IMG/VR virus record: IMGVR_UViG_3300031841_004520 | Span: 32,001 to 96,000 of that record | From: a virus | Strand: one strand, 5' to 3' | Length of the DNA stretch: 64,000 bases | In this document: piece by piece, positions 1-45,665 of the stretch | Layout of the letters: each line of letters starts with the position of its first letter | Numbering within the stretch: position 1 is the stretch's first letter | Translations under genes and position numbers: made by a program | The notes under the pieces: model-generated | The model's database searches: none | The model's input: only the letters and a program-made list of their open reading frames with translations | What the model was told of the DNA's origin: nothing

Positions 1-2
1 TT

Positions 3-650
3 TATGACACCACTACCTCAGGAACTTACGCTTATACTATAGATTATAAAAATAGTAGAATTATATTTAATAACAGACAATCTTCCAATCTAAATATAGA
101 AATGAGTCATTCTTATAGGTGGGTTCAGATATACAACTTCGCAGACGCAAAATGGTGGCAAGAATTACAGTATAATCCAAATAATAATGAAGCTCATCAA
201 AAAACTAAAGATAAGGGTGATTTTACTATTCCTGCACATCAAAGGGTACAGATGCCAGCTGTAGTCATAGAGACTGTTGCTAGAGGCACATCAGATCCAT
301 TTCAAATGGGAGATAAATCTCAAAGGATTTCTCAAGACTTTTTGTTCCATATTATAGCTAATAATTATACGGATAGAAACAATATTATCGATATCCTAAG
401 ATTGCAAGAAGATAAAGTACTATCTTTTTACGATATGGATAAAGTGGTTAAAGATGGCAAATACTGGTTAAATTTTGATGGAACTCTTAATCCCAATAGA
501 CTTCAATATGATGTTTTATGTAAGCTTTCTAGCACATATCATTGGAATACATGTAGATTAAAAAATATGGTTATTTCGGAAGTGGAGTCGTTTAATGCTG
601 ATCTTTTCGAGGCAAATATCAGAGTAACTGCTGAAATTATAATAGTTTAA
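3..650 (+). CDS. Putative tail completion/terminator-like virion protein (5'-truncated by the window edge)
   Basis: The frame of ORF 102..650 is open back to base 3 (YDTTTSGTYAYTIDYKNSRIIF...). It lies directly before the tail-tube genes and has a PAVVIE motif followed by a beta-rich C-terminus. Function is inferred from synteny. Confidence 0.5.
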   Translation, partial: YDTTTSGTYAYTIDYKNSRIIFNNRQSSNLNIEMSHSYRWVQIYNFADAKWWQELQYNPNNNEAHQKTKDKGDFTIPAHQRVQMPAVVIETVARGTSDPFQMGDKSQRISQDFLFHIIANNYTDRNNIIDILRLQEDKVLSFYDMDKVVKDGKYWLNFDGTLNPNRLQYDVLCKLSSTYHWNTCRLKNMVISEVESFNADLFEANIRVTAEIIIV

Positions 651-657
651 AAAAAAT

Positions 658-670
658 GGTGTATAATAAT
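658..670 (+). promoter_or_regulatory. Putative phage promoter, GGTGTA-NN-ATAAT
   Basis: GGTGTATAATAAT follows an A-tract in the intergenic gap before the tail-tube gene. The same motif with the same spacing occurs at 47965-47977 on the - strand. Confidence 0.5.
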
Positions 671-710
671 TCAAGTCTACCGTCTAACAACAGAATAATC
701 GGAGAATATT

Positions 711-1658
711 ATGGCAAATAAAAGAGTGTTTTACGCTTCTCAAGGCGTGGCCGTTGCTCAGTCTGGGGTTAGTAGCCCTACAACGGTTACTGGTGCCCAA
801 AGCGTAACAATGAATACAAATTTTAATCTAGAACAGGTTTTCCAGCTGGGCCAACTGGCAGTTTATGACAATGTTGTTGGCGATCCTAGTGTAGAAGTCT
901 CTATTAGTAAGTCTCTGGATGGACAGCCTACTATCTATAACTTAGCTTGTGGTAGCGGCAGCCTTTTAGAGACAGCTTCTACTGTTAGCAAGGTGGAGTT
1001 TTGTGTTGGGTCTGATACGGTAAATAAGGTTGGTGATAACGCTACTAGTATTCCTAAAATTACTTGTGACCCTATATATCTACAAAGTTTGAGTTACAAT
1101 TTTGCTGTTGATGGAGACTTTACAGAAGAAGTAACATTTGTTGGATTGAGTAAAGTTATTGGAACTGGTCTTGTTACAACTCCTGGTGACGGAAACGCTA
1201 CCAGACAAACAGTTCTTAGAAGACAGAACTTTGATCAACTCAGTTCTAGTCTTCCAAGTCAGGTAGATGGAAAAAATATTCAAAGCATTAGCCTTAGTGC
1301 TGACCTTGGTCGTGAATCTATGTACAAAATGGGTAGATTCAAAGAATTCCATAGATATGTTAACTTCCCGCTTGAAATTTCAATGGACATTGAAGTTATT
1401 GCAGATAGCCTTGATGACGTTGCTGTTGATATTCCTGATGCAAGTTGCTCAGGTCTTAACCTTCCAAAACAAGATTGTGTTTTGCAATTTTGCGACTCTG
1501 AAGGAAGCGGAAGCTACACATTCACTTTGGGTGATGCTACTTTAACTAGTGTTGCATTTGGTGGTGGCGATACTGGTGGTGGAAATGCCAATCTGACATT
1601 TTCATACGTTGTATACAATAGCTTTACAATTGCTAGTGCTGCTTCTCATGCTGGCTAG
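711..1658 (+). CDS. Major tail tube protein (putative), paralog 1
   Basis: 315 aa with a GGAG RBS. Beta-rich and S/T/G/V-rich, upstream of the chaperones and TMP. Starts with NKRVFYA and ends with GGDTGGGNANLTFSY. Confidence 0.65.
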   Translation: MANKRVFYASQGVAVAQSGVSSPTTVTGAQSVTMNTNFNLEQVFQLGQLAVYDNVVGDPSVEVSISKSLDGQPTIYNLACGSGSLLETASTVSKVEFCVGSDTVNKVGDNATSIPKITCDPIYLQSLSYNFAVDGDFTEEVTFVGLSKVIGTGLVTTPGDGNATRQTVLRRQNFDQLSSSLPSQVDGKNIQSISLSADLGRESMYKMGRFKEFHRYVNFPLEISMDIEVIADSLDDVAVDIPDASCSGLNLPKQDCVLQFCDSEGSGSYTFTLGDATLTSVAFGGGDTGGGNANLTFSYVVYNSFTIASAASHAG

Positions 1659-1685
1659 TGTTTAAATAATTAATAGGATTTTTTG

Positions 1686-2645
1686 ATGGGAAACAAAAGA
1701 GTGTTTTATGCCTGTCAGGGGCTAATGCTTGATGGCAAGCCCCTGTATGGCGTACAAAACGTTTCTGTAAGAACAGAACAAAATACTAACGTTGTAGAAA
1801 ACTGGGGCTCTTTGCATATCAGTGGGGTGGCTGTTGACACACCTCGTTCTACCGTTACTATTAGCAGAATCATAGCATCACCTGCTACCGGCGTACCACA
1901 AGGTTCTGGTATATATGGATCTATTGTAAGTGGAGACTTATCTGCAGTAGCCACGAATCACAGTAGTCAATTGTGTTTATTTGTTACAAATGACACAGAT
2001 CCAGGAGTGAGCGATGAATCTACCTCTGTAAGAAACGTATCTTTTAAGGATTGTAGTATAAATAGCCTGTCTTACAGTATTAATGTAGACGGATATTTGA
2101 CAGAGAATACTGAAATAATAGCTTATAACAAAGTACATAATGGTAGTGGATGTCCAATAGGCAGTATGGATTTCAAAAAAAATCAGGCGCACCCAATACA
2201 GAGGCAGGATATAAACTCTTTTGATTTTTCAAATAAAGTTACTTCTTCTGGAGCTATACAAAACATAAGTATTTCTATTCCATTTAACATACAAACCGTT
2301 GATGAGTTTGGTACTGCAATGAGTAGGCACTCTAAGGGTTATCGCTTCCCTACTCTCCCTATAGCCTCCACTCTCTCTGTTTCTGTAATATATCAGAACA
2401 CCGACAGATTTGATAATTATATGTTTGCAGAACCAACTGGTACCACTAGCTGTGATTATATACCGCCAGACTTTCCTCAAGTTACTGGTCTTAGTTTTTC
2501 TGCTTGTGGTGGCTTTGGTGTTAGTTTAGGCAATTGTGTATTGCAAAGTATAGATTATGAGGGTGGTGATGTTGGTGGCGGAAATGCAACACTAACATAT
2601 GATTTTGTGTGCTATAATTCAGGAAGTATACATGGACAAGAATAG
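1686..2645 (+). CDS. Tail tube-like protein, paralog 2
   Basis: Shares NKRVFYA, QxxS-like and GGDxGGGNAxLT motifs and similar length with 711..1658. ATG at 1686 follows AGGA. Confidence 0.6.
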   Translation: MGNKRVFYACQGLMLDGKPLYGVQNVSVRTEQNTNVVENWGSLHISGVAVDTPRSTVTISRIIASPATGVPQGSGIYGSIVSGDLSAVATNHSSQLCLFVTNDTDPGVSDESTSVRNVSFKDCSINSLSYSINVDGYLTENTEIIAYNKVHNGSGCPIGSMDFKKNQAHPIQRQDINSFDFSNKVTSSGAIQNISISIPFNIQTVDEFGTAMSRHSKGYRFPTLPIASTLSVSVIYQNTDRFDNYMFAEPTGTTSCDYIPPDFPQVTGLSFSACGGFGVSLGNCVLQSIDYEGGDVGGGNATLTYDFVCYNSGSIHGQE

Positions 2646-3645
2646 AATTCTGTCAAGATTGCTCAAAGGCTATTATTTTGTTAAGGTGAAAAATTTTAAA
2701 CTCAAAGTTAAGCCCCCAACAGTATATGTAGAAAATAAGGCAGCGCTATACCACGATAAAATTCTAGAAGATCTAAAATTTGATGATAGTCAAGATTGGT
2801 TAGATGAAGACAAAAGGATGTTTATTTTAACTATAAATAAAATATGGGACAATAGTCAACAAAAAGAACTTGACACACTACTTGATGACATAATCATATT
2901 GAAGAAAGAGCTATTTAAAAACTTTAATTTGGTTGATACTAGAAAATTAATTAAAGAAAAAATCAAAGATAACGAGTCTAGAATAAACGTATTGCACAAT
3001 ACAAGATATACATACTTTGATCACACAAAGCAATCATATGCAAATGTGTTAAAAAATCATTATATTATTAAAAATACGGTGTATTTAAAAGACAGATTGT
3101 TTTTTAAGATTCAGAAAGAACAACATTTGTATTATCTACAAAGACTTTCTAACCTTATAACAGAATTAAATATTCAGGACATTAGAAGTATAATACATTG
3201 TGATTCTTGGAAAAGTTTATGGGAAAGTGCTAAAACAGGCGTTTTCGACAAACCTATAAAAGACTGTAATGTTGAACAAAGGATGGCTATTACAGCTAGT
3301 ATGATGTTGGATAATATTAGACAGCATCCTGATTGTCCAAGTGAAGAAATCCTGAAAGATTCCGATGCGTTAGATGGTTGGGTATTATTCCAAAACGATA
3401 AATTCGAAAAACAACAAAAGAAGCAAGCAATAGAAACTAATATAAAAGACAAAAATGCTGGAGAGGTTTTCGTTATGGCTAGTAGTCCAGAGGAGATAAA
3501 ATCTATAATGGAATTAAATGACCCATTAACTAAGTCTCAAATAAGAAGATCGATAGACCATGCAGCAAAGACAGAAGGTCCGACTAAATGGCAGGATATT
3601 CCTGGAATGAAAGAAGCCATAATAAGAGAGAATAAAAATGAATAA
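2632..3645 (+). CDS. Putative tail assembly chaperone, paralog A
   Basis: Likely start is ATG 2632 (MDKNRIL) after AGGAAG. Helical and charged. Its N-terminal half aligns by eye with 3939..4811. Confidence 0.5.
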   Translation: MDKNRILSRLLKGYYFVKVKNFKLKVKPPTVYVENKAALYHDKILEDLKFDDSQDWLDEDKRMFILTINKIWDNSQQKELDTLLDDIIILKKELFKNFNLVDTRKLIKEKIKDNESRINVLHNTRYTYFDHTKQSYANVLKNHYIIKNTVYLKDRLFFKIQKEQHLYYLQRLSNLITELNIQDIRSIIHCDSWKSLWESAKTGVFDKPIKDCNVEQRMAITASMMLDNIRQHPDCPSEEILKDSDALDGWVLFQNDKFEKQQKKQAIETNIKDKNAGEVFVMASSPEEIKSIMELNDPLTKSQIRRSIDHAAKTEGPTKWQDIPGMKEAIIRENKNE

Positions 3646-3946
3646 AAAATATCAGAGAGAATTGCTACGCAAAGCAGAAACTAGATTTAAGACTATCATG
3701 ATAGGCTCAATAGCTAGAGTAGAAGAATATTTTGGTTATTTGTGGGCACACGGCAAAGACAATCCCACAGAAAGAGAAGAAGAGTTTAGGGTCTTGTGGG
3801 ATGAACTAAGGAATGAAATTCTTAACCATGGTAATTATAACATTAGAAAAGGATTGGATGATATATACGAGACATTTGAACAAGGTGAGAGTAAGTACGA
3901 ATATAATTTTATTATGAAAGACAAAAGGAGCAATCAAGATGGATGA
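3638..3946 (+). CDS. Hypothetical phage protein (tail module)
   Basis: 102-aa ORF overlapping both neighbours. Confidence 0.6.
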   Translation: MNKKYQRELLRKAETRFKTIMIGSIARVEEYFGYLWAHGKDNPTEREEEFRVLWDELRNEILNHGNYNIRKGLDDIYETFEQGESKYEYNFIMKDKRSNQDG

Positions 3947-4811
3947 AAATGATTTTAAGATAACTAAAGGCAAGGAAGAGATTGAATTAACGGTCAAATC
4001 GCCTTCACCTAAAAATCAAAGAGAAAGCCAAAAAATTTATAATAGAGCTTTTTCTGATGCTTTAAACTCTGGCTCTATAGTTAGAGCTAGGTTAGACGAC
4101 GTAATGAAAGAGCAAAAGTTATGGGATGATAAGAAAGAACAAGAGTATCAAGATATACAAAAGGGTGTTCTAGAAAATGAAAGAATACTGGCAAAAGGTG
4201 GGATTTCTTTGCAAAAAGCTAGAGAATGCGCACTTAAGATGCAGAAATTAAGAGAAGATTTAAAAAATTTAATATCTGAAAGGACAACGCTAGACTCACA
4301 TACTGCAGAAGGTCAGGCTGATAACGCTAAATTTAATTTCTTAGTATCTTGTTGTGTGGTGTATAAAGATACTAATAAGCCTTATTTTGAAGGATATGAG
4401 GATTACAATAAAAGGGCTATTGAACCAGCAGGTATTATTGGTGCTCAAAAGTTAGCCAATATGCTTTATGGTTTAGATGATGATTTTGAGAAAAATTTAC
4501 CAGAAAATCAATTTTTACATAAATATAAGTTTGTAGATGAAAACCTCCGACCTATCAATAGTGACGGTAAGCTTGTTGATAATGAAGGTAGACTTATTGA
4601 TGAGTATGGTAGATTCATTGATGATAAGGGTAATCGTGTAGATATTGAGGGCAATCCATTAGATGATGACGAAAATTATAAATTTGAGTTCTCTCCATTT
4701 TTAGACGATAGTGGAAAACCCATTATAGAAGATGAAGACAAAGATGAAGAAAAACCTAAACCTAAACCGAAGACTAGAGCAAAAGCAAAAAAAGATATTG
4801 AGTCTTCATAG
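3939..4811 (+). CDS. Putative tail assembly chaperone, paralog B, with DxxGxx heptad repeats
   Basis: AGGAG RBS, directly upstream of the TMP. Contains C-terminal 7-aa repeats and an acidic then basic tail. Confidence 0.55.
   Translation: MDENDFKITKGKEEIELTVKSPSPKNQRESQKIYNRAFSDALNSGSIVRARLDDVMKEQKLWDDKKEQEYQDIQKGVLENERILAKGGISLQKARECALKMQKLREDLKNLISERTTLDSHTAEGQADNAKFNFLVSCCVVYKDTNKPYFEGYEDYNKRAIEPAGIIGAQKLANMLYGLDDDFEKNLPENQFLHKYKFVDENLRPINSDGKLVDNEGRLIDEYGRFIDDKGNRVDIEGNPLDDDENYKFEFSPFLDDSGKPIIEDEDKDEEKPKPKPKTRAKAKKDIESS
4536..4679 (+). repeat. Protein-level 7-aa tandem repeat (DxxG[R/K/N]xx)
   Basis: DENLRPI-NSDGKLV-DNEGRLI-DEYGRFI-DDKGNRV-DIEGNPL-DDDENY. Confidence 0.75.
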
Positions 4812-4839
4812 TCAATTTTTATCTATTCATAACTTTAAC

Positions 4840-4875
4840 ATAGCCCTTTGTGTAATATCATTGGGCTATTTTTTT
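4840..4875 (+). terminator. Intrinsic terminator/attenuator-like hairpin before the TMP
   Basis: Stem ATAGCCC (4840-4846) pairs with GGGCTAT (4863-4869) around a 16-nt loop, followed by a T-run and then the GGAG RBS. Confidence 0.55.
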
Positions 4876-4887
4876 GGAGTTTAAAAT

Positions 4888-7800
4888 ATGGCACAGCCTT
4901 TTAATCTTACAGCACAGCTTAACTTGCAAGGCCCTTCTAATGTAAAAAAAGTAGTTGCAGATATTAGAAGACAGCTTGGAACCATTAAAGCAAATGTAGA
5001 CCTTAACATTAAAGGGACTACAGCCAAGAATATTGCTGGAATTAATAAACAGCTGAACTCTTTAGCTGCTGCCGCTAAAAATGCTCAGGGTAATGTTACC
5101 ACTCTAGGTGCTGCTCTGAAAAGTTTAAATAGCGGATTTAATAGTGCTAATTCTACAGCTAAAACTTTTAATAAGACAGCAGCATCTACAGGCAAAAATA
5201 TACAAAATAGTGCTCAAAGTGTTCAACAAGCTACTACTGCTGTAGAAGAGTTTGGTAAACAATCCGCATTGGCCGTTAAGCGTTTTGCTGCTTTTAGTGT
5301 TGTTACTTCTGTGATAAATAGATTTAGTAGTGCTGTTAGTGATAGTTTTAAAACCTTTATTGCTTTTGATAGACAGCTAGTAAGAGTTGCTCAAGTTACT
5401 GGTGGTACTGCTGCGGACATAAAAGCATTGTCAAACGAGATAGGAAGTTTAGCCGCTAAGTTTGGTGTTGCTTCTACTGATTTGGCTGAAGTTTCTGTTA
5501 CTTTAGCACAAGCAGGTTTAAGTGCAAATCAGGCGAAGGTTGCTTTAGAAGCATTGGCCAAAACATCATTAGCTGCTACATTTACTAATATTAACAATAC
5601 AACAGAGGGCAGTATTGCTCTTATGCGTCAGTTCAAAGTTAGTGTGCAAGACCTAGAGAGTGCTCTTGGATCTATTAATGCTGTTGCTGGTGAATTTGCT
5701 GTGGAATCTAGTGATATCATTACTGCAATTTCTAGAGCTGGTGGTGTGTTTGCTGCTGCTAGTAAGGGAGTGAGTACTGGTACAGAAGCCTTGCAAGAAT
5801 TTGTTGCTGTTTTTACTAGTGTAAGATCTACTAGTCGTGAAAGCGCAGAAACTATTGCTACTGGTTTGCGAACTATTTTTACTAGAATTCAACGTGGCAG
5901 CACAATAAAGTTCTTAAAAGAGTTCGGTGTGGAGCTGCAAGATGTAGAGGGTAAGTTTGTTGGTCCATTTGAAGCCGTTAGAAGACTTAGCGATGCGTTG
6001 CAGGGACTTGATCCTAGAGATGTTCGGTTTACAAAAATTGTAGAAGAACTTGGTGGCTTTAGACAAATTGGTAAAGTTATCCCTTTAATTCAAGAGTTTG
6101 CAACTGCACAAGAAGCATTAGCAGTCGCACAAAGAGGTTCAGGATCATTAACCAAAGATGCTGTAACAGCACAGGCAGCTCTTGCAGTACAATTTCAAAA
6201 AACTCGTGAAGAATTCAACAATCTAATTAGAGATATTGGACAGAGTGCTACTTTTCAAACCATTACTAAACTTGTACTGGGATTAGCTAATTCCTTTATT
6301 AGTGTAGCTGGAGCTTTAAAGCCAATACTACCTTTGATTACTGCACTTACTGCAGCAAAAGGCTTTAAGTTTATTACTGAATTTATGAGTGGGTTTAAGG
6401 GAGGTCTTGGGGGTGGTGGCGGACTAGCTGGTGCTCTTGGTGGTGGTGGAGGTGCTCCATCTGGTGGCGGTGGCGGTGGCGCTGGTGGTGCAGTACAGGC
6501 AAACACTACAGCTTTAACCTCAAGCACTTCAGCAATACAGCAATTAACTACAGCTATAAATAATTTGGTTGGCGGTACTAAAACACAGCCTTTAGGAGCA
6601 TTGCAAGGAATAAAATTTGCTAGAGGTGGAGATGTTCCTGGCACAGGCAATAGAGATACTGTTCCGGCAATGTTACAGCCAGGAGAGTTTGTAATTCGTA
6701 AAAGTGCTGTAGACGCATTCGGTAGAGATAATCTTGCTAGGATTAATAAGTATAACAATGGAGGACCTGCTAAAAGGGCCGGTATTTCAGAAGTCAAAAG
6801 AATTACTAAAGTTTTAGATGGAGACACCTTCGATGCTGAAGTTGTACCAACTCGTGAGTCTTTTACCGCTAGATTTAGACCAGAGGGATATGATGCTTAT
6901 GAAACTAGTGGTATCAGTAGGGTCGCACAAGATAGGCTAGAAAGACTAAGAGAGCTTAATAGAAATAATGCACAAATAAGTGCAGCGTTACGAAATCCCA
7001 AAATCAGTGGCACTGACCCAGGTATTGAAATACCAGAAAATACCTTAATAGAACAGAATAGAACCGCTTTGGATGCAGCAAAGAGTGGGACAAAACAGTA
7101 CGCTGCATATCTTGAGAAGAACAAAGATATTCTTGCAGATCAGATACTTAGAGAAGATGGTGGTTTTGGTAGATATCTTATTGATCATGGCGGTGTTCCT
7201 ATTGGGCCAAGAAATGTAACTGGTAGATTTAGTAAGTTTGCTACTGGCGGAGCAGTTTCAGATACTGTTCCTGCTATGCTTACTCCCGGCGAGTATGTAA
7301 TAAACAAGAAGTCTGCCCAAGCATTTGGTTATGGTAATCTCAAGAAGATTAATGGTTATGCTCAGGGTGGTGTTGTTAAAAATGGAGTTCAGCATTTTAG
7401 TAATGGAGGTATGGCTGATAGACTTAGTGAAGCATTTTCTGATCAAAATATAGCCAAACAGCTTAAAGCTACCTCTATACAAGTAAGAAGATTTGGTTTA
7501 ACTTTACAAAGAGGAGCATCTAAAGCTAGTAAAAAAGTATCTGATAACTTTAGGGTTGCTAGTATACAAACTCAAAGATTCGGTCTTCGCATTGATGAAG
7601 CAAGTAAGTTTACAGGGAGTTTTGTTGGTACTTTTAGTGCTGGTCTTGCTGCTTTGACTCCGCAAATAGATAGCATGGTAGCTAGTTTTGATCAGCTAAA
7701 CGGTACAACCTTAGCAACTAGCGAAGAGTTTATGGGCTTTCGAAAAGGCTTGGAAGGAGCTACATCAAAAGGTTTAAGTGCTTCTATTGCAGCCCAGCAA

Positions 7801-10800
7801 GCTGGTTTTGGACGAAAGAGCACTGCACTAATCGCTGGTGGAGCCGCTGTATCTGGCGCAGTGTCAGGATTTATTGCAGGAGGATCACAAGCACGAGAAA
7901 GAGAGTTTAGGGCAGAGGGTGGCAAAGCTGATGTTAGACGTTCACAGGCTCGTGAAGATTTTAATTCAGCTGGTACAGAGAAGCAGCAATTACAAGCATT
8001 AGCAGATTTTACGGATGCGACTGTAGATTATAACGCTAGTATAGCAGCGGCAAATAAAGAATACATGAGCGAGACTGCTAGGCTTGGTAGAGCTATTGGA
8101 TCGGTTACTGATGGTATTCTTGGCGGACTAATGTTACTTGGTGGTATCAGGGGTGCTAGGGGTGCTATGGGGAGATCTGCAGGTGGTCCTGTTTATGCTA
8201 GTAAGGGACAGTATGTTAATTATGAGCCTAAAGGTACAGATACCGTACCGGCTATGCTGAGTCCTGGTGAATTTGTTGTTAATGCTAGATCTACTAAACA
8301 AAACAAAGGATTGCTAGAAGCTATTAATAAAAGTAAAGGCGGTACGATAAGAAGCCCAGTTTACTTGCGTAATGGTGGGATGTCTTACGACGAGGCTAGA
8401 AAACTAGGATATAGTCATAGTGAAGCTTATGCTATGAATAAGAAGAACATAGAGAGCTCAGGCTCCAAAAATGCTGGTTTCTTTGGTGGGATAGGTTATC
8501 TGGGGCAGCTGAGTCAGTTTTATAATCCTTTTGATAATACTAAAAGAGAAGGTAATGATTCTTTAGGTGAAGGAATTAGAAATACTGGTAGAGGATCAAT
8601 GGCTATAGCAGCTGCGGCAGGTACAGCCGCTGGTGGTCTAGCTCTGGCTCCTGGTCTTGCTGCTGGGGTTGGTGGTACTGGGGCTCTTGGTACTGCTTCC
8701 AACGTAGGTTTCGGCGCAATGGATGCTGCGGACTTTGCTGCAGATCCTTCACTTGCTACTGGAGCAATGTTAGCTACTAATTTTATACCTGGATCTGGTT
8801 TCATTAAAGGTGGTGCTAGAGGGGTAAAGGCTGCAAAGGGAGCAACTCAAGTCGCTAAGACAGCGAAGGCTTCAAAGACAGCATCAAAAGCTAGTAAGAA
8901 AGGTGGTGGGTTCTTTAGTAGACTGTTTGGTGGTGGTAAAAAAGCGACACCAGGTGCAGTAACTCCTCCACAGACACCTTTGCGTCGAACACCAGGAGCG
9001 TCTCCCGTAACTCCAGGGGCAGGCAAGCCTAGCAGCTCCCTGCGGCGAGACTTTATCGGACCTCCTGCTCCACCTCCTAAAGTCCCCAAAGCAACATCAG
9101 TAACTGGTAAAACCAGCAGAACACGAACAGGAATGAGAAGACGTGGATTTGGTAGAACCGGTAAGTTTGGAAGGGCAATGAATATGGCAGGCAATGCTGC
9201 TTCGCTAGGGATGTTTGCGCTTGGTGCTGCTGGTGGCATAAGTGAAGGCGTAAGTCAATATATGGGAACAGATGCTGAATCAGCCGCTAGAATGCAACAA
9301 GCTAGTCTTGACAGATTTGCAGGAACTAAAGAAGGAGCCATAAAGAGAGGTCAGATAGGTAGGTTAGATAGTCCTGTAAATCAAAGAGTGTTAGAAAACT
9401 TCGACAGAGTTAGAGCTGGCGGCGGAAGCGCAGAATTTCAAAGAAGACAATTAGGACAATCTGATGTTAATGATTTAACAACAGGAGGTTTATTAAGTGA
9501 ACAGCGTAGACAAGAAAGTATAAGACAAGCAACCAGTAAGATCGGTGCCGAGGGTGGCAGTTCTATCAATATTGCAGCAGACGAAACAGCACAAGAATTC
9601 ATGGCCAGTGATAGGTATGCTGCCTTAAAGGACGATGAGAAAAAAGCTATTGAAAAGGCCATAGTCGCTGGAGAGAGACAATTAACCAACGATGCTTATA
9701 GGGCTGCTAGAGCAAAAGAACTAGAGCGTGCAGGCATCTCTGCTGCAGATGCTCAGAAACAGATAACTAAAGAATTACATGAGAATACTGATGTCAATGG
9801 TAATCTGACAGGAGCTGTAGCCAGGCGAGCAGAATTAGAAAGAGGTATAGCTGAAGAGACAGCCTCCAAAGCACTTAAGGCTGCTATGGAGCAGAAGAAA
9901 TTTACCAGACAGACAGCAGATCTTACTGCAATTATGACACGAGCTAGTGCTAGTTTTAAACGGCTAAGTAGCGAAATGGATGTTGTTGTTGCGTCTACTA
10001 ATTCTATGGTGGGTGCAATAGGAGGTCAAGCGACCGCTGCTTCTGGTGTTCGTGGTAGTGCGGCTGTTAGAGATGCAGAAGTTCTTAAAAATCCTACAGC
10101 TTTCTCTACATCGGAACTTGATGCTACATTAGCTAGAGCCGTAACAGGCTTAGGGGGTAGTGAGCCAATACAACAAGCTGCAGATTTGACAAGAGCCCAA
10201 GCTGGATTCGACAAACTTAAACCTACCATTGAGGCAGCGTTAAAGGGAGAAGGCGGATCAAGTTTAGATCGTACCGATATTGTAGATATGCTGGAAAAAG
10301 GATTTAAAGATTTAAAAATAGAAGCTCCTGATGGATTTCTTGATGCTGCGGCAGAATCTTTGCAAGGAGGCGAAGGTGCAGGAAAAACTTTAAGCATGAT
10401 GTTGACAAAGTCTAAACAAGCCAACGAACTTCTTGCACAATATGCTGATCTTGCTGCTAAAGGTTTACAGCAACTAGCTGGTCAATCTGATTTACTTAGT
10501 GCTAGTTTGTCTAGAGTTAAAACTTTGCGTGGTGAAAAAGCTGCAATCGATGCTGAGGGTAACGTTAATTTGAAAGAAGCTTTAGGGTTTGATCCTTCTA
10601 AAGGTGAGTTAACGGCTGGTAGAGATGCCAGAATTGGTGCTTTAACTGGCGGAACCACAGATCCTAATGCTATATTTAATCAAATGCAATCGGATTTAGA
10701 TACTCGTAAAACTTTAGAGGGAGGCGGCACAGTAAATATTGGTGGCGAAGAGATGGACCAACAAGCTGCATTAGCTAGTGGAGAAATGGCTAAGTTAAAT

Positions 10801-11802
10801 AGTAGTATTAATGATTCTAGAAAAGCTCTTGAGATGTTGGCCAACGACACTACGGCTGCAGATGCCGCGTTGCAAAAAATTGCTGATAGAGATTCTCAGT
10901 TAAGAGAACAGTCTTCTACGGCATTAGACATGGTCGCTGATCCTAGCAAAGCCCTAGATTTTATTGGTCAAAGTCAATCGTTAAGCAGGGTGTTGAGTGG
11001 TCAGGGTGGTTTCCAAGATGTTGGGGCTGGCAAGGCTGCTTTAGGCCAATTAGAAGGCATGATTCCTCCAGAGATGTTTGCTAAATTACAAGAAAAATTC
11101 TTTAAGGGAGCAGGTCAAGGTACTGGGTTGGGGGGTGCCTTGCAACCATTTGCTGCTGGTGCTGCCAGTGGTATTGATGGCAAAAAAGATGATCCTGTTA
11201 TGGCTCGTGAAATTGCGGCTTTTGAAGAAGCTAACAAGATAAGAAAAGAAGCAACAGACAAACTAATCGCACTTGAGCTACAAGCTGGTGAAGCTATTCA
11301 GGGTAGTCTTACTACTTTAAATGATCAAATCACTAATCAGCTTGCTCCCATAATAGATCAAATCAATACCGAACTTACCACTTTCAAAAATAATGTTGCT
11401 GCTGCTAATGGTGGCGGTGCTGGTGGGGCCGGTGGGGCCGGTGGAGCTGGAGCTGGTGCTCCTCCTCCTCCTGAGGGTGGTGTAGCTGGTGCTGCTCCTG
11501 CTAACAATCCTTTGGCGGGCATACAGGCTCCAAATATTTCGAAGGAAGGCAGAGAAAACCTTGGTTATAAAGATTCTATGGCTGATGATATGGCGGCTCG
11601 TGGTGGAGGATCTGCAAACAACACCATGCAACTACAAGCACCATCAGAGCCAATGCAAGTATCCATAAGTCTAGACGCAGGATCACAAGCAGCTTTAGGT
11701 GCAGCTGGAACAGAAGAGATCAAGAAAGCCATGTCTAGGATAGGTGACTTAATATACGAAAAAACAAATAGCAGTATAGATATTAGAGGGGGATTGGCTT
11801 AA
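4888..11802 (+). CDS. Tail tape measure protein with internal SNase-like nuclease and repeated DTVPAMLxPGE modules
   Basis: 2304 aa and Ala/Gly-rich. Has a TP901-type TMP core (LAQAG...IATGLRTIFTRI...LGGFRQ) and sits between chaperone and baseplate genes. Confidence 0.9.
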   Translation: MAQPFNLTAQLNLQGPSNVKKVVADIRRQLGTIKANVDLNIKGTTAKNIAGINKQLNSLAAAAKNAQGNVTTLGAALKSLNSGFNSANSTAKTFNKTAASTGKNIQNSAQSVQQATTAVEEFGKQSALAVKRFAAFSVVTSVINRFSSAVSDSFKTFIAFDRQLVRVAQVTGGTAADIKALSNEIGSLAAKFGVASTDLAEVSVTLAQAGLSANQAKVALEALAKTSLAATFTNINNTTEGSIALMRQFKVSVQDLESALGSINAVAGEFAVESSDIITAISRAGGVFAAASKGVSTGTEALQEFVAVFTSVRSTSRESAETIATGLRTIFTRIQRGSTIKFLKEFGVELQDVEGKFVGPFEAVRRLSDALQGLDPRDVRFTKIVEELGGFRQIGKVIPLIQEFATAQEALAVAQRGSGSLTKDAVTAQAALAVQFQKTREEFNNLIRDIGQSATFQTITKLVLGLANSFISVAGALKPILPLITALTAAKGFKFITEFMSGFKGGLGGGGGLAGALGGGGGAPSGGGGGGAGGAVQANTTALTSSTSAIQQLTTAINNLVGGTKTQPLGALQGIKFARGGDVPGTGNRDTVPAMLQPGEFVIRKSAVDAFGRDNLARINKYNNGGPAKRAGISEVKRITKVLDGDTFDAEVVPTRESFTARFRPEGYDAYETSGISRVAQDRLERLRELNRNNAQISAALRNPKISGTDPGIEIPENTLIEQNRTALDAAKSGTKQYAAYLEKNKDILADQILREDGGFGRYLIDHGGVPIGPRNVTGRFSKFATGGAVSDTVPAMLTPGEYVINKKSAQAFGYGNLKKINGYAQGGVVKNGVQHFSNGGMADRLSEAFSDQNIAKQLKATSIQVRRFGLTLQRGASKASKKVSDNFRVASIQTQRFGLRIDEASKFTGSFVGTFSAGLAALTPQIDSMVASFDQLNGTTLATSEEFMGFRKGLEGATSKGLSASIAAQQAGFGRKSTALIAGGAAVSGAVSGFIAGGSQAREREFRAEGGKADVRRSQAREDFNSAGTEKQQLQALADFTDATVDYNASIAAANKEYMSETARLGRAIGSVTDGILGGLMLLGGIRGARGAMGRSAGGPVYASKGQYVNYEPKGTDTVPAMLSPGEFVVNARSTKQNKGLLEAINKSKGGTIRSPVYLRNGGMSYDEARKLGYSHSEAYAMNKKNIESSGSKNAGFFGGIGYLGQLSQFYNPFDNTKREGNDSLGEGIRNTGRGSMAIAAAAGTAAGGLALAPGLAAGVGGTGALGTASNVGFGAMDAADFAADPSLATGAMLATNFIPGSGFIKGGARGVKAAKGATQVAKTAKASKTASKASKKGGGFFSRLFGGGKKATPGAVTPPQTPLRRTPGASPVTPGAGKPSSSLRRDFIGPPAPPPKVPKATSVTGKTSRTRTGMRRRGFGRTGKFGRAMNMAGNAASLGMFALGAAGGISEGVSQYMGTDAESAARMQQASLDRFAGTKEGAIKRGQIGRLDSPVNQRVLENFDRVRAGGGSAEFQRRQLGQSDVNDLTTGGLLSEQRRQESIRQATSKIGAEGGSSINIAADETAQEFMASDRYAALKDDEKKAIEKAIVAGERQLTNDAYRAARAKELERAGISAADAQKQITKELHENTDVNGNLTGAVARRAELERGIAEETASKALKAAMEQKKFTRQTADLTAIMTRASASFKRLSSEMDVVVASTNSMVGAIGGQATAASGVRGSAAVRDAEVLKNPTAFSTSELDATLARAVTGLGGSEPIQQAADLTRAQAGFDKLKPTIEAALKGEGGSSLDRTDIVDMLEKGFKDLKIEAPDGFLDAAAESLQGGEGAGKTLSMMLTKSKQANELLAQYADLAAKGLQQLAGQSDLLSASLSRVKTLRGEKAAIDAEGNVNLKEALGFDPSKGELTAGRDARIGALTGGTTDPNAIFNQMQSDLDTRKTLEGGGTVNIGGEEMDQQAALASGEMAKLNSSINDSRKALEMLANDTTAADAALQKIADRDSQLREQSSTALDMVADPSKALDFIGQSQSLSRVLSGQGGFQDVGAGKAALGQLEGMIPPEMFAKLQEKFFKGAGQGTGLGGALQPFAAGAASGIDGKKDDPVMAREIAAFEEANKIRKEATDKLIALELQAGEAIQGSLTTLNDQITNQLAPIIDQINTELTTFKNNVAAANGGGAGGAGGAGGAGAGAPPPPEGGVAGAAPANNPLAGIQAPNISKEGRENLGYKDSMADDMAARGGGSANNTMQLQAPSEPMQVSISLDAGSQAALGAAGTEEIKKAMSRIGDLIYEKTNSSIDIRGGLA
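6616..8379 (+). repeat. Three dispersed copies of the [F/Y]xxGG...DTVPAMLxPGE[F/Y]V...IN...GG module in the TMP
   Basis: Copies lie at about 6616-6765, 7237-7371 and 8173-8379 (DTVPAMLQPGEFV, DTVPAMLTPGEYV, DTVPAMLSPGEFV). Confidence 0.9.
6793..7200 (+). other. Staphylococcal nuclease (thermonuclease)-like domain within the TMP
   Basis: VLDGDTF (DGDT at 6817-6828), R-x4-D-x2-E (RPEGYDAYE, 6877-6903) and FGRYL (R at 7171). Confidence 0.75.
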
Positions 11803-13691
11803 TGTCAAATTATTTTGAAAATACTAAAAGTAGTACTGAATATCATGTTATGACAGAAGAGGTTACTGCATCTGGCACTACGGTGACATTGGGCAGCATT
11901 GGCAAATTAGAGCCTGTTCCTTTTGTTTCTATATCTCTAGAAAAATATACAGTAGGAGACAAAACTCTTGGGGGTGTGTTAAATCTATCTTTAGAAGGTG
12001 TTTTCTATGGACAAAACTTTGATGATACAGCTTCTCAGTTGAAATCAAAAATAGACACCTTAGCAGATCAACATAGCTGCATGACAGGGATTAATATCAA
12101 ATGTGGCGATACAACAATTATCTCAAGCGGAATAGGGTATATAAGAAGTTATGCTTTTCCTCAAGGTCCGCAAAAAAATTGGATGAATATAATTCCTTAT
12201 AATATAGATGTTGTTATCACTCATCAAGGTACTGATCCTGTAGTGAAACCAGACGGGCAATTAAAACTTAAATATGATATAGATAACAATACAGCCATAA
12301 GAAGTATTAGAGAAAGTGTAAGTTGGTCATTAAATGAAAATACCCTTCAGATGTATAATCCAGATCCTAGTAAATATGACACGTATGTGTCAGCATATAC
12401 TAATGAGCATATAGTTGTTCAATATTCTTTAGATATACAGGGTTTTGGTGTTTGTGGAACTGGCTGTCATGATATTGCCGTTTTGAATGCGTTAGATTCC
12501 GCAAAACATGTTGCTGACTATAGAATACACAATATGCAAAACTTAAATACGTCGTCTTTTAGTTGCGATAGCTCAGGATTATTACCAAACAATTATGATA
12601 CCACTATTAGATATGATCATACAAGAGACATTAGCGTTAATGAACTAGAGGGCAGTTTAAGTGTTAAGGGGCAATATATCGTTAGACCTAGTGGCGCAAA
12701 GAAAGACACGCTAATGACAATGGAATCTTCTGCTGATTCTAGTTTAGATAGTGGAGAAAAAACAGTCACTCTTACTGGCAGTATTAGAGGTCTTGTTCAG
12801 AATGAGTATACAACATCTGGCGATGGCAATGGTAATCACTACAGCCCTAAGGATAGTGAAACTCTTATAGATAAAAAATCAACCGCTATGGATGCTGCTG
12901 AACTAGAAATGCAGAATATCATGGTTAGTGGTACCGGTATAATTAAGGAAATAGCTAAACATAATCAGTTGTTAAAATTTAATGCTGCCGTAGGAGATAA
13001 TACTGGTAAAACACTAGCAAACATTTCTAGTACCAACGCTAATACTTGGCAAGCCGGAGATTCAGATAATACTGAATTTAGACTATTGGGCAAAAGTATT
13101 AAAAGAAATTATCCTAATAGTACAATTGATTTTACTTTAACTTATTCTAATAAAAGCAGACATAAAATAGCTAATGCTTTATGGGCAGAGATTAGTATAG
13201 ATCACGAAATGCCTTCTAGAAGATTAGTTGAACATGTAATCCCTGGTAGAGGGTATCCTTTAATGCAAGATATATTGTGTGATACACAAGATGTGTTTAC
13301 TATAAATGTAACTGCACAATTTGAGCCAAACAGTAATATTAAAAACATTATTAATGCAGCTCGTGAAGAGATATTGGTTTTAGTATATAATACTGCTGTT
13401 AGTTTAGGTATAGGTGGATACATTCGCACAGGAGATAGTGAAAATATAGCAAACAATGGTAGTTATAAAAGAAGTATAAAACTAACCAGCCCAACGTGTA
13501 ACAATATAACAACCAGTAATACTACTTTGGATTACTTAGAGATGCCAGGTGATACATTCACTAATGCTGCACAATTAGATCTTACCACATTGAATCCAGA
13601 AGCTTTTGTGCAAGATGACTTTGAGACTGAACGGGGTATTATTCCAGCATCAATACCAGAGTTTGACAAAACAAGAGATAAGCCAGAATAA
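11802..13691 (+). CDS. Putative distal tail/baseplate protein
   Basis: 629 aa and beta-rich. Start overlaps the TMP stop codon (TAATG). Called from synteny. Confidence 0.5.
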   Translation: MSNYFENTKSSTEYHVMTEEVTASGTTVTLGSIGKLEPVPFVSISLEKYTVGDKTLGGVLNLSLEGVFYGQNFDDTASQLKSKIDTLADQHSCMTGINIKCGDTTIISSGIGYIRSYAFPQGPQKNWMNIIPYNIDVVITHQGTDPVVKPDGQLKLKYDIDNNTAIRSIRESVSWSLNENTLQMYNPDPSKYDTYVSAYTNEHIVVQYSLDIQGFGVCGTGCHDIAVLNALDSAKHVADYRIHNMQNLNTSSFSCDSSGLLPNNYDTTIRYDHTRDISVNELEGSLSVKGQYIVRPSGAKKDTLMTMESSADSSLDSGEKTVTLTGSIRGLVQNEYTTSGDGNGNHYSPKDSETLIDKKSTAMDAAELEMQNIMVSGTGIIKEIAKHNQLLKFNAAVGDNTGKTLANISSTNANTWQAGDSDNTEFRLLGKSIKRNYPNSTIDFTLTYSNKSRHKIANALWAEISIDHEMPSRRLVEHVIPGRGYPLMQDILCDTQDVFTINVTAQFEPNSNIKNIINAAREEILVLVYNTAVSLGIGGYIRTGDSENIANNGSYKRSIKLTSPTCNNITTSNTTLDYLEMPGDTFTNAAQLDLTTLNPEAFVQDDFETERGIIPASIPEFDKTRDKPE

Positions 13692-13703
13692 TAAGGAAAT
13701 TAT

Positions 13704-14621
13704 ATGTTTAGGATTTACTACAATACAAAAGTAAGAAATTTTAATAAAGTATTACACAAGCCTAAGGTGTTACATAAGGCTTACAACTATATTTATTGTA
13801 GAGATATTGATCTAAATACTATACAGCCGGGACAAACTTTTAATATAGGTAATTTAGAGCAAACTATTTTAGAAAAAGATAGTGATGGTTTCTTTGTAGC
13901 TCCTGGATTACATATGCCAAATCCTTTATCAAAAGCAGACTTTGTGATTAACTTATTTGGAAATCAACACAATATGTCTTTTAATGCTTTTTCTTCTTAT
14001 AACTCTATGCTCGTTGGTTCTTTGATTTATCCTAGTTTTTATTCACATATAAACGTTGGAGATGAAGCCAGAGCAATAGACATACATGACAATATAGTAT
14101 ATATACAAAATTTAGAAATAACTAGTTTAGAAAATGTAGAAAGTGTTTATTTAAATGACACCATGACTACTGTAGCAAAATTTAATAAAAATTTAGAGTT
14201 GTGCGATTGGCTCAACAAAGCCTCCAACTTATCAATATATTCTTTAACTACTGTCTTAAAAAATTTAGATATGAATGTTTATTTTAGGTGTTATGGTGGA
14301 TCACCTAAGTCCAATTTTGTAGATAATCCAATGCCGCAGTATAAACTAGAAATTACTGACTTGGATACAGAAGAGACTGTGACAAAATATATTTATCAGT
14401 TTCATAGTGAGACTATTAGTGCAAAACATAGATATAAACTTATGGTTAAAGACGAGTTAAATAACATTCCTGTATTGGTTAATGATAGTAGTACTGATGG
14501 CAATATATATGTTGATTTTTCTAATATGGATAATTTTACTATGATGTCTCAAAAAACTACTACATCTAGAAAAACACTTGCAGAAATAGCAGAACCTTTG
14601 TTCCAAAGAAGAGTAAAATAA
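13704..14621 (+). CDS. Hypothetical protein (tail module)
   Basis: 305-aa ORF with AAGGA RBS. Confidence 0.55.
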   Translation: MFRIYYNTKVRNFNKVLHKPKVLHKAYNYIYCRDIDLNTIQPGQTFNIGNLEQTILEKDSDGFFVAPGLHMPNPLSKADFVINLFGNQHNMSFNAFSSYNSMLVGSLIYPSFYSHINVGDEARAIDIHDNIVYIQNLEITSLENVESVYLNDTMTTVAKFNKNLELCDWLNKASNLSIYSLTTVLKNLDMNVYFRCYGGSPKSNFVDNPMPQYKLEITDLDTEETVTKYIYQFHSETISAKHRYKLMVKDELNNIPVLVNDSSTDGNIYVDFSNMDNFTMMSQKTTTSRKTLAEIAEPLFQRRVK

Positions 14622-17600
14622 TGCCTATTAATGATCAATACGACAATAATTTACACATACAATCTCCTGGTAAATTTAATCAGGCAAGTAGCACAAACCC
14701 TATAACTTACCAGAGGTTCTTAAATTGTGATGTTAAGGGTTTTAATTTGAACTTAGGTTTTGGTGGTGCTGAAACTACTATGACTATGGATCTAGTAGAG
14801 TCTTTAGTAGGAAATCCGCCAGCTCATAAAGCGAATGAGACTTTAGCGACTTTTAGAGATCGGTGCAATACCAATCCTCCTGATTCAGATTGCAATCAAC
14901 TTCGTTACAGTGGGGAGTTAGGTAGAGTATATACATTTATAGCAACAAATGTGGATGATGATGAAGTCTTTGAATTTTCAGGAATACTGTCTGACCACGA
15001 TATAAAAATAGATAGTAATGGTCGAACTATAACCATACGGCTGACCGATGGTCGTGTTGCGTTAGAAAATGTTCAATTAGTTATAGGAAATAATTATTCT
15101 AGAAACTATACTTATAATTCTGCTGGAGAAAGTGTTAATGTTTTAAATATTTTATATGAAACTGAAAAAGGTGTTAGTCATAGTTTTGATAATCTAGGCT
15201 TCGACCTTCCGACAGACCCATCAAATCCATTAGCTACATATAGTAAGTGTGATTATTTTATGGATAGTGGATATGACGATGACGGCATACCTGTGACATA
15301 TGTATTAGGTCAATTTATGTCTAGCGATAGATATATGTCCTTACCTCTTAGCGATCAAACGATAAGGATTAATTTAGATAACATATATAATACAGCATTA
15401 AACAGAGTTAGTTACATGCGTATTAATGATACTAGCATTAGTTTAATGGATTTATTGCAGCAGGTTTGTGAAGAAGCGGCTGGAGAACTAGTTATAAATA
15501 CAGAGAGTACAGCAACAGGATATGAAATAGTTGCTTCATTTATTGACAGAAGTGTACCTATACCATCTGATGGATATGCTTTAGGAGCATATGTACAAAG
15601 CAAATTTCCTGTTTATAAATCTTTAAGCTACGGCCAAGAATCATCTTACGAAACTACGCAAAATCTTGTCTTTGGATCTAAGATGAGATATTTTGTAGAA
15701 GTCCAAAGACAAAAAATGCATAGTATACCCACTAAAGATGCTGGTGCGATTATTAATAATCCTCTAGATGTCGTGGTGCCTGATATGTCTAGCGATGCTA
15801 CAGCAGATCACGACAAAGTAAAATCACAAGATCTTAGTGAGCCTCCAGAAGAGAGTTGCTATGATCCGGATGATTTTACTCCACCCAACGGAACATTTTG
15901 TAATATTCCTACTGGCGGTGGCCGAATTGCTATGGTTTTGGGAGAAAAACTTAATGGAGCATTAACAGATCAAGGTATACCTGCTTATACTTTATACTTA
16001 AGTAATCTTTGTGGAGATTATATGGGTATAACTTATGATCTTACAGAGATATGTAGTATTTTAGGTGTTGCAGATCAAGGGTCTGCATTATTGACAGAAG
16101 AAGAATTGCTGTTTAGCCAAACATACGAATCATATATTAATTGGGCTACTATGCATCCTAATAGTATTGGTTCTAAAATGGGAGCTGTGATTTTTGGAGA
16201 TCTTTGGGGCAATTTCCAAGAATATTCATTAAAGATTTTTGCAGACATTGTGGAGAATGGTAGTTTCGACAGCTTCAAAGACCCTGCATTAGCTTTTCCT
16301 GATGTTGAAGTTAGTAAAAAACTTTTTGAGGTTGTTCATGCTTATGTAAAAAATATATATGATACATATTATGGTAAAGAATATGTAGCTTTATTAGACA
16401 CTAGAACAAATCAAACTCTTCCAAAAAATAATTTTCAGGTTTGTATAGGTAAAAGTTTTAACACATGGACCAATCAATCTCAGGGAGATATCGCATTTCC
16501 TCAAGCTAATGCTAACGTAACAATACCTAATAATGATCCATTGTTGTTTATACAACAGGGAGTTTTGCAAAATGTTATCAAAACAGCAGGTAAAGGATAT
16601 TTAAGTACTAGCGAGACCGTATGTAATGGAGCTTGGTTTGGTGGTACTTCTTCTAGCGAAAGAGGAGCAACTAAGATTCTCAGTGATGAGCTGGGTAATG
16701 GTGGTTTAGGTACAGAAGACGGGTTGGCTAGATTTTTAAACGACGACAACACGATAGGTTCTTTTGTAAAATACGGTCCTGTAGATAGTATTTGTAAAAG
16801 GATAGGTGGGACCACTTTTGTGTTTCGTGTAGACTTGAGTGCTTTAAATCCTAGTGATTTTGTTGTTAGGACAGAAATAGTAGGCACTAAGCCAACAGCT
16901 ATGTTATATCTCAGGGCTAGTGTAAGTGAAGAGATGTATTTTGGTAAAATATCACTTACTAATAGTATTGACGTTTATACTGGCTTGGGTGAGCTTCAAG
17001 ATGATTATACATGGGTTAGATTTAGTATACCTAGAGTAAAACTTATTCCGACAGTAGGACAAGAAGGAGCTGTTGGTAGGGCCGCCAGTAGGATGGCGCT
17101 AATTGCTTTACAAGTTATGACAGATATGGGCTCTCTGTCTGGTATAATTGAAGGAGATTTTACTTTAAGAGATGCCATTGCAGACAAATTAGCTGGTGGA
17201 GGAATCAATCCTGGTGTTTTTGATGGGATAGCTGCAAACTTAGCTGTAACAAATTTAGCAAAAATGTCCATACCGGCTATTGTTCCAGAGGCAGTTGCTA
17301 TTCCTTTGCAGAGTGAAATCAGAACCTATGGCCCATGGAAAGGTGTTAGCAATCCTAGTGGCGGAATGAATGTAGTTGAAATGGATTTAGCTCCGTGGCA
17401 ATTTGGTTTCGGTCCTAATGCTCCTGCAGATAGCTACAATAGATTGGAGGCTATTGGGTCATCTCATGCTCAAAATGGAACCTTCGGTCGTCTGTATCAA
17501 GAAAAAGCTAGCATTTCCTTAGCTGGAATTCCTGAGATAAATATTGGTGTTCCGGCGAGTCAACTTAATCAAGATGGTACTACGACCGGTGATCCATACA

Positions 17601-24732: not shown

Positions 24733-25184
24733 AAATTAAAAATAAAAAAGCAAAAATATTAGTTTTAGTATTACAGGCACTAGGTTGTCGTGTAACTTTT
24801 ACAGATGAAGATGCGACATTTAGTCCTATTGGTGTTGTTAACGAGAAATTAAAAGAAGAGATATTAGAACATAAGACTGAGATACAAGAAGAACTAGGTT
24901 CAGATATTAGACTTATGTCTATATCAGGTAGTAAAAATTGTGTAGGTCATGAATTACAATTGTTAATAAACAAATATTATCCAGATATATCCTGTGAAAG
25001 CATTCAGTCTAAATTAGATGAATATGATGCAAGAGGTTGCTTATGGTGTGAAACTAACAAAAGTATTGTTATTAGAGAAGTACAGCAATTTGCTCGCAAG
25101 CACGATATACAATCAACTTACGAGCAGATTAGAACTGTAGTAAAAAAGGCTATATCAAACGCTAAGAAAACGATTATTTCTTAG
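24729..25184 (+). CDS. Small protein with TubC_N-like N-terminus and Cys-containing C-terminus (possible fibre chaperone)
   Basis: ATGA overlap with the upstream gene. Contains LQALGCRV...P.GVVNEKLKEEILEHKTEI and CVGHEL...C...D.RGCLWC. Confidence 0.5.
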   Translation: MKIKNKKAKILVLVLQALGCRVTFTDEDATFSPIGVVNEKLKEEILEHKTEIQEELGSDIRLMSISGSKNCVGHELQLLINKYYPDISCESIQSKLDEYDARGCLWCETNKSIVIREVQQFARKHDIQSTYEQIRTVVKKAISNAKKTIIS

Positions 25185-28457: not shown

Positions 28458-28896
28458 ATTTATATATTAGTTTTCTGGTTGTGTCTATAAATTCTTGCCA
28501 AGTATTTTTATCAGAATTTTCGTTTAAAATTAATTCATGAATATCCCCCCAGGATTGTTTAATTTGTTTAGAAAACGCAATTTGTTTGACTATGGGGATA
28601 TTGTTGATCTTTTCTTGAAATTTATTTGAATCTATCATATCAGATTTTGGTTCGTGGTCAATCAATATCAATGGGCATTGATGATATTTCGTAAGTTTAA
28701 TAATTTTTTCTAAGTGTTTAGTCTTATCGTTTGATATAATTAACTCCGGAATAAAACTACCCAAATATATTTGGTCTAAAGCAAATAGACATACTCTTAG
28801 TGTTTTAAAAAACTCTTCAAACTCTCTGTTGTCACTAGGTATCCATAGTATATTATTTATGATGTTTGTTTCTCTTGCTAGTAAACTAGAAATCAC
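28450..28896 (-). CDS. Hypothetical protein (possibly a glycosyltransferase-like fragment)
   Basis: 148-aa ORF in the operon with a P(L)ILIDHE motif. Confidence 0.45.
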   Translation of the reverse strand: MISSLLARETNIINNILWIPSDNREFEEFFKTLRVCLFALDQIYLGSFIPELIISNDKTKHLEKIIKLTKYHQCPLILIDHEPKSDMIDSNKFQEKINNIPIVKQIAFSKQIKQSWGDIHELILNENSDKNTWQEFIDTTRKLIYKYE

Positions 28897-34560: not shown

Positions 34561-34561
34561 A

Positions 34562-44953: not shown

Positions 44954-44954
44954 T

Positions 44955-45641: not shown

Positions 45642-45665
45642 GGTTATACCTCTCTAGGAGTAGAA

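Follow-up and report, generated by a model that had tools for sequence, protein, structure and literature searches.

A divergent staphylococcal-nuclease-like domain in an apparently exchangeable slot of a phage tape measure protein

The tape measure protein of an uncultured siphovirus-like phage very probably carries a divergent homologue of staphylococcal nuclease (SNase, or thermonuclease, an enzyme with an oligonucleotide/oligosaccharide-binding (OB) fold), placed between two copies of a repeated sequence module. The phage is represented by IMG/VR virus record IMGVR_UViG_3300031841_004520, a 124 kb record (123,592 bases), and the DNA analysed here, referred to as the window, is the stretch of 64,000 nucleotides (nt) that forms bases 32001-96000 of that record (G+C 35%). 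The open reading frame (ORF) in question was recognised as a tape measure protein in an original prediction made from the sequence, and this identification holds because PF10145 (E 6.5e-22; 78.8 bits against a cut-off of 33.2; amino acids (aa) 187-387) and TIGR01760 (E 6.7e-24; 84.6 bits against a cut-off of 28.8) both exceed their cut-offs; phrog_28, 'tail length tape measure protein', also matched, at E 1.1e-22. PF10145 was the sole domain found in the ORF by Pfam. The repeated module is about 45-50 aa long, follows the pattern GG..DTVPAMLxPGE[FY]V[IV]N...N..GG and is present in three copies, in which DTVPAML starts at aa 590, 792 and 1118. None of the Pfam models in our local copy matched these modules, the Isochorismatase matches at E 0.015 and 0.13 being below threshold and judged to be noise. 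The same module recurs many times in giant relatives of the protein, and it may act as a connector, a hinge, a cleavage site or a recombination site.

Three SNase motifs lie between the first and second of these modules, as the original prediction had placed them, and are in the open 2304-aa frame at aa 642, 664 and 760: VLDGDTF (aa 642-648; nt 6811-6831), RPEGYDAYE (aa 664-672; nt 6877-6903) and the FGR strand. The catalytic set of SNase consists of the metal ligands D21 and D40, the general base E43, and R35 and R87. In the window's domain the residues that align to this set in YokF-type SNases are D646, D669, E672, R664 and R762, so that all five of the predicted catalytic residues are present, and D646 aligns with the second aspartate of the SNase DGDT motif, which we take to be the Ca2+ ligand D21 in SNase numbering. 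The predicted expansion of about 90 codons between glutamate and arginine is likewise real, E672 and R762 being 90 residues apart; the equivalent distance in Staphylococcus aureus SNase is 44. A composite pattern of these motifs (DGD[TS]-x8-30-R-x4-D-x2-E-x30-120-[YFW]GR) is found a single time when the window is translated in all six frames, and did not arise by chance in any of 200 codon-block shuffles of the window or 2000 residue shuffles of the protein. The span first proposed for the feature, 6616-7410, takes in module 1 and module 2 in addition to the domain, which on its own is narrower and occupies 6763-7251.

An exhaustive HMMER search over 1.84 billion representatives gave 13 matches to the domain, 11 of which are real, and every one of these lies in a tape-measure-like protein (2199-6311 aa) or in a fragment with the same modules; a stand-alone copy of the family was not present among the 11. 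The remaining two, the long tandem-repeat proteins P0005 (E 9e-24; 17 matched stretches) and P0011 (E 3e-8; 12 matched stretches), match the helical insertion only and were dropped; the insertion is coiled-coil-like and draws such spurious matches. Full-length homologues have the domain immediately behind the first module, at approximately aa 500-660. An alignment of the window's domain with ten homologues (alignment A1, with the partial fragment P0006 left out) spans 198 columns, with homologue identities to the window's domain of 31-73%, and 17 of the 163 query positions are invariant, including all five catalytic positions. When eight compact variants, described below, were added, the five catalytic positions remained invariant in 19 of 19 sequences. 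In the giant homologues P0007 (6311 aa), P0012 (5601 aa), P0009 (5023 aa), P0014 and P0003 the SNase-like domain comes first and is followed by long arrays, in which Walker-A-like, HxGH nucleotidyltransferase-like and HExxH motifs can be seen by eye; Pfam matches in P0014 and P0003 were only weak (cytidylyltransferase-related, E 0.004; EF-hand, E 3e-4).

The assignment to SNase depends on a bridge through sister sequences. A relative of the module-bearing region is encoded by 97 IMG/VR stretches, from which 80 loci (L049-L128) were fetched, and a hidden Markov model of the window's family found the domain in five of the 80: in full in L049, and as its N-terminal half only in L050, L052, L054 and L055. 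These last four, together with L051, carry a compact version of the domain (approximately 110-130 aa) in the same slot, and P0137-P0141 were added as further compact variants by database search. Pfam SNase was the top match for three compact variants, below the curated PF00565 threshold of 21 bits (L052, E 0.021 and 15.7 bits; L054, E 0.11 and 13.4 bits; P0138, E 0.015 and 16.2 bits), and did not match L050, L051, P0137, P0140 or P0141. As SNase reference we used an alignment of SPbeta YokF, which matches PF00565 at E 9.5e-33, with 11 IMG/VR relatives of 35-70% identity. By hhalign, with P-values that refer to single pairwise comparisons, the compact variants matched the SNase reference at 96.4% (P 1.1e-9) over 96 columns covering DGD, the R, the D..E pair, the helix, the YGR strand and the helix after it, and matched the window's family at 97.2% (P 3.8e-11) over 46 columns. 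Reversed-sequence controls gave 0.2-1.6%, and the merged alignment of 19 sequences matched SNase at 77.8% (P 1.9e-5). In tblastn searches of 50,697 GenBank phage records the compact domain of L052 had one match, a thermonuclease family protein of Sulfurimonas phage SNW-1 (E 8e-3; 31.5% identity), while that of L054 had none. The two-step hhalign result, the invariant residues and the predicted order of secondary structure agree with the original reading of the domain as an SNase homologue. We regard this homology as well supported for the N-terminal half; for the C-terminal half it is supported by structure prediction, collinearity and the invariant arginine.

AlphaFold (AF2) supplied with alignment A1 gave a model of the domain with a predicted local distance difference test score (pLDDT) of 88.3 and a predicted template modelling score (pTM) of 0.84. 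The elements of the model follow the order b1-b2-b3-[insertion]-helix-b4-b5, in which the insertion takes up domain residues ~48-100 and contains, in domain numbering, E52-54, H56-65, H70-77, E88-90 and E95-97. As modelled, this order is that of SNase except that an insertion follows the catalytic glutamate and the two C-terminal helices are missing. A Foldseek search of the PDB with this model placed SNase V66I at rank 2 (E 0.38; probability 0.75; template modelling (TM) score 0.36/0.42). Against BFVD, ranks 6, 7, 9, 10, 11 and 15 were labelled TNase-like, SNase-like or thermonuclease and ranks 1, 3 and 5 endonuclease or nuclease, with E 0.0026-0.41, probability up to 0.99 and TM scores of 0.33-0.38 in long alignments. 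The Foldseek evidence obtained with the predicted model is thus consistent with SNase but weak.

The region between modules 1 and 2 differs sharply between close relatives. By blastn against the sister-phage locus L050, window positions 1-6753 are 90.8% identical and positions 7217-8333 are 94.1% identical, while between window 6754-7216 and L050 10139-10457 there was nothing that could be aligned. At the protein level identity to L050 is 0.16-0.54 in aa 601-800 and 0.92-1.0 in flanking bins of 50 aa, with the exception of the bin adjoining the slot at aa 551-600 (0.80). P0004 has a milder form of the same pattern, with an identity of 0.48-0.76 in the slot, and L122, L097 and L090 have unrelated inserts between the same modules. 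Because of these patterns we conclude from the sequence comparisons that the slot is an exchangeable cassette in which SNase-like cargo occurs in at least two forms, and it is probably under conflict-driven diversification.

A number of observations weigh against SNase homology of the whole domain or against its acting as a nuclease. Pfam and NCBIfam searches with the window's domain gave no SNase match at E up to 10; PF00565 found nothing in the whole virus record (as a positive control, 6 of 14 control genomes did contain matches to it); no SNase was listed when PDB sequences were searched with the domain's own sequence or with the 11-sequence profile; and the ESM Atlas had no usable match to the domain. 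Neither tblastn nor megablast, run with the domain and with the gene, found anything in the 50,697 phage records, and the sole hint in direct searches was phrog_452, 'endonuclease', at E 0.27 over the stretch from DGDT to E. Direct hhalign of the window's family with SNases reached 5% (P 0.0073; columns 14-56 to 11-50), with a second, collinear match on the FGR strand (P 0.039; Q132-140 to T78-86), and a first hhalign comparison reached 1% against a shallow profile (A2) of eight near-identical Bacillus YokF/YncB sequences (72-100% identical) taken from the best 120 matches listed; an SNase reference was also looked for in Escherichia coli K-12, where there was none. Since the direct searches lack SNase, the absence of an SNase profile match that the original prediction had named as evidence against itself is formally what was found, with the match through the compact intermediates standing on the other side. 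This bridge reaches the window's family only in the N-terminal 46 columns, and the C-terminal half has the weak collinear match and the invariant arginine. The evolutionary part of the original prediction very probably holds, while its functional part, an active and injected enzyme directed at host or competitor nucleic acid, is a proposal. The structural part stands in part: the alignment-based model is confident and has the SNase order, but it was built on 11 sequences, AlphaFold run on the single sequence gave a poor model (pLDDT 54) that was set aside, and no Foldseek match against the PDB or BFVD was at E 0.001 or below (TM scores 0.33-0.42). The domain ends approximately 26 residues past R762, at module 2, and the C-terminal helices that complete the nucleotide pocket are absent; in SNase these helices contain tyrosines that bind the nucleotide, and SNase loses stability when truncated. 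The Ca2+ level of the cytoplasm does not suffice for canonical SNase, and a non-specific nuclease adjoining the phage's own DNA would need a safeguard.

In the mechanism that we propose, the domain would ride in the tail lumen within the tape measure protein, be expelled before the DNA at infection and fold where calcium is available, in the envelope or periplasm. Non-specific cutting there could be directed at competitor or incoming foreign DNA, or at host DNA or RNA if the domain were to reach the cytoplasm. We propose a calcium switch because SNase chemistry requires high Ca2+, and seawater-like media hold millimolar Ca2+; low cytoplasmic Ca2+ would hold the domain quiet in the producing cell. 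Catalytic activity of the domain is somewhat favoured, judging from residue conservation: the general base and both metal ligands are conserved across two subfamilies, whereas defunct SN-like domains, for example in Tudor-SN, lose catalytic residues together with function. Tape measure proteins leave the tail during genome entry, and by this analogy it is rather likely that the domain is delivered to the host within the ejected protein. A role for the tape measure protein at the inner membrane during entry of the genome is described in the accessible part of a recent preprint (bioRxiv 10.1101/2025.11.03.685801). For the chain as a whole, in which an SNase homologue is both active and a delivered nuclease, we consider the balance to be about even. 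A wider scenario is doubtful and is offered tentatively: that a lineage of uncultured large siphoviruses delivers an active, calcium-switched, non-specific nuclease by way of the tape measure protein, with the DTVPAML modules as standard connectors for cargo swapping in an arms race and the giant homologues of 4000-6300 aa as effector arrays on the same connectors.

Other explanations differ from a delivered nuclease in what the domain does, where it does it, or whether it is related to SNase. A rather unlikely possibility is that an SNase-fold module binds calcium and nucleic acid without cutting, the old active site serving as a phosphate clamp, either to retain the leading genome end in the tail and pull it into the cell, or to anchor the tape measure protein. 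Binding of this kind would be compatible with the lack of the C-terminal helices, with the 50-aa insertion after the catalytic glutamate and with the fixed place directly after the first module (~aa 500-660 in full-length homologues); OB-folds often bind nucleic acid, and a binding role would entail no self-DNA problem. It accounts poorly for the invariance of the glutamate and both aspartates in 19 of 19 sequences from two subfamilies that share only ~20-30% identity, as the glutamate is not required for binding alone and non-catalytic Tudor-SN domains have lost such residues. That the resemblance to SNase is convergence or chance, the domain being an unrelated small beta-rich fold special to these tape measure proteins, is very improbable: direct searches do fail and all Foldseek E-values exceed 0.001, but the motif is absent from all 200 and all 2000 shuffles, the two-step hhalign comparison reaches 96-97% with clean reversed controls, collinear matches align all five residues, thermonuclease-like proteins prevail in the BFVD list of Foldseek, and the sole tblastn match is a thermonuclease.

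SNase enzymes are typically extracellular and Ca2+-dependent, and YokF is annotated as a putative lipoprotein nuclease. An active nuclease could therefore also work outside injection, within the producer cell as it lyses or in the medium, for example by clearing extracellular or released DNA at virions or the cell surface, in which case the tape measure protein would be a mere carrier, or surplus unassembled protein would act. Stand-alone thermonucleases are often carried by phages, as is seen in BFVD and tblastn matches and in the accessible part of PMC2147016. We nevertheless consider this improbable, as no stand-alone copy of the family was found, all 11 of the real matches being in tape-measure-like proteins or fragments, and as the fixed place between tape-measure modules argues for a role bound to the tape measure protein. 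Delivery of an active nuclease within the ejected tape measure protein is the reading carried forward here, and Table 1 collects the features on which it draws together with those of the DNA polymerase III locus.

Table 1. Features of the window, with window coordinates
Feature	Position	Strand	Basis
Tape measure protein gene, 2304 aa (P0001)	4888..11802	+	open frame; PF10145, TIGR01760, phrog_28
PhageMin_Tail (PF10145) core, aa 187-387	5446..6048	+	
DTVPAML module 1, aa 577-625, left slot border	6616..6762	+	resembles tape-measure PHROGs
Cassette exchanged relative to sister-phage locus L050	6754..7216	+	blastn; per-bin protein identity
SNase-like domain, expanded variant, 163 aa (aa 626-788), 18 kDa	6763..7251	+	11 homologues, AF2, hhalign
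DGDT, aa 644-647	6817..6828	+	D-G-D invariant in 19/19; aligned to DGDT of YokF-type SNases
R664-x4-D669-x2-E672	6877..6903	+	R, D and E invariant in 19/19; hhalign columns on SNase R-x4-D-x2-E
Insertion of ~50 aa (two helices and a hairpin)	6904..7062	+	AF2; gap in compact variants of merged alignment
FGRYL, aa 760-764	7165..7179	+	R762 on R of SNase YGR strand; R invariant in 19/19
DTVPAML module 2, aa 784-828, right slot border	7237..7371	+	
DTVPAML module 3, aa 1103-1152	8194..8343	+	
DNA polymerase III alpha, finger, helix-hairpin-helix (HhH) and OB part	32072-33685	-	
DnaQ/RNase T-like exonuclease ORF, between the polymerase III alpha parts	33642-34385	-	
DNA polymerase III alpha, PHP and NTPase part	34562-36412	-	

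The surroundings of the tape measure gene fit a tail module in their order of sizes, with two small ORFs upstream (102 and 290 aa) and four large ones downstream (629, 305, 1611 and 1758 aa), of which those of 1611 and 1758 aa are presumably distal tail or fibre proteins. Nine of the ten neighbours of the gene (window 711-4811 and 11802-25184, + strand) had no PHROG match at E 0.001, and the tenth had a weak match to 'virion structural protein'. The lack of matches for these nine indicates that the phage comes from a poorly known lineage, and aa 1-571 of the tape measure protein found only distant tape measure proteins, of 22-26% identity, in the 50,697 phage records. Elsewhere in the window, on the minus strand, a DNA polymerase III alpha subunit is encoded in two ORFs (32072-36412), and replication and metabolism genes at 36413-37444, 38070-40644, 41906-42952 and 44387-47864 include a PD-(D/E)XK nuclease, a Toprim primase-like protein, DnaB helicase, RecA, an HNH endonuclease, PhoH and a class II ribonucleotide reductase. 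Two group-1 glycosyltransferases and a block of further genes lie at 28893-31588 and 50629-60671 on the same strand, the members of the block being a methyltransferase, an NAD-dependent epimerase/dehydratase, a UDP-glucose/GDP-mannose dehydrogenase, a class I/II aminotransferase and a family-2 glycosyltransferase, and a deoxynucleoside monophosphate (dNMP) kinase is also encoded (37444-38073, minus strand). It is pure speculation that the two glycosyltransferases, the block and the dNMP kinase could serve DNA hypermodification, or else glycan synthesis, and equally so that hypermodification might shield the phage genome against its own nuclease. No tRNA genes were found within the window.

The likeness of the domain to SNase (PF00565, for example YokF of the Bacillus subtilis prophage SPbeta) lies in the DGD[TS] motif, in R-x4-D-x2-E, in the strand with an aromatic residue followed by GR, and in the predicted succession of three strands, a helix and two strands; the compact sister variants alone share also the following helix with L..G[VL]A, the first of the two C-terminal helices. 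It differs from SNase in that the window's variant has no Pfam score, the compact variants scoring 13.4-16.2 bits against the required 21, in the ~50-aa insertion after the glutamate and the absence of both C-terminal helices, and in its setting, as the window's domain sits in a virion protein of 2304 aa whereas SNase is secreted as an enzyme on its own. Tape measure proteins with muralytic cargo are known, such as Pb2 of T5 with its peptidase and those of mycobacteriophages with Rpf-like motifs, and the protein in the window resembles these in having a TP901-type core and, behind it, a globular domain of enzyme-like character, which would be expected to leave the tail. Its cargo, in contrast, is nucleolytic by homology, and its slot is bordered by DTVPAML modules and exchanged between close relatives. 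As the tape measure cargo known is wall-degrading, a nuclease would, if the reading is true, be a different class of cargo at the first moment of infection, and it raises the questions of how the genome that follows escapes a non-specific nuclease and which nucleic acid lies at the envelope. A slot bordered by modules, swapped between phages whose flanking DNA is more than 90% identical and enlarged to multi-enzyme arrays in relatives, suggests that siphovirus tails may have a general means of protein delivery, which would bear on superinfection exclusion, on counter-defence and on engineered phage payloads.

Full-text searches of the literature, with the matching passages of PMC9376991, PMC6639632, PMC2147016 and PMC6965579, brought up no tape measure protein that contains a domain of the SNase or thermonuclease type, and none turned up in the 50,697 phage records. 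SNase folds have, however, already been annotated automatically in large phage proteins: one protein of 1342 aa, of an uncultured phage, bears the BFVD label 'Staphylococcal nuclease (SNase-like), OB-fold'. Polyvalent proteins (Iyer et al. 2017, PMC5512222), as described in the available part of that paper, are likewise large multidomain proteins delivered with DNA that carry conflict-related enzymes, and the giant tape measure homologues (up to 6311 aa) look like such arrays. The protein in the window differs from them in having one recognisable enzyme-like domain only, rather than several effectors and a metallopeptidase; the polyvalent-protein domain LPD39 matched one of 11 family members at E 0.072, with no other match of this type, and the terms 'tape measure', 'SNase', 'staphylococcal nuclease' and 'thermonuclease' do not occur in the text of PMC5512222. 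The nearest precedent is an SNase-related domain on the tail hub protein of the BtI1 element, a homologue of gp147 of phage 0305phi8-36, the purpose of which was not obvious to the authors in the part of their report available to us (PMC2147016). As there described, it shares with the domain in the window the fusion of an SNase-type domain to the tail protein that is first to meet the cell envelope, and it differs in belonging to the baseplate hub of a myovirus-like element of Bacillus.

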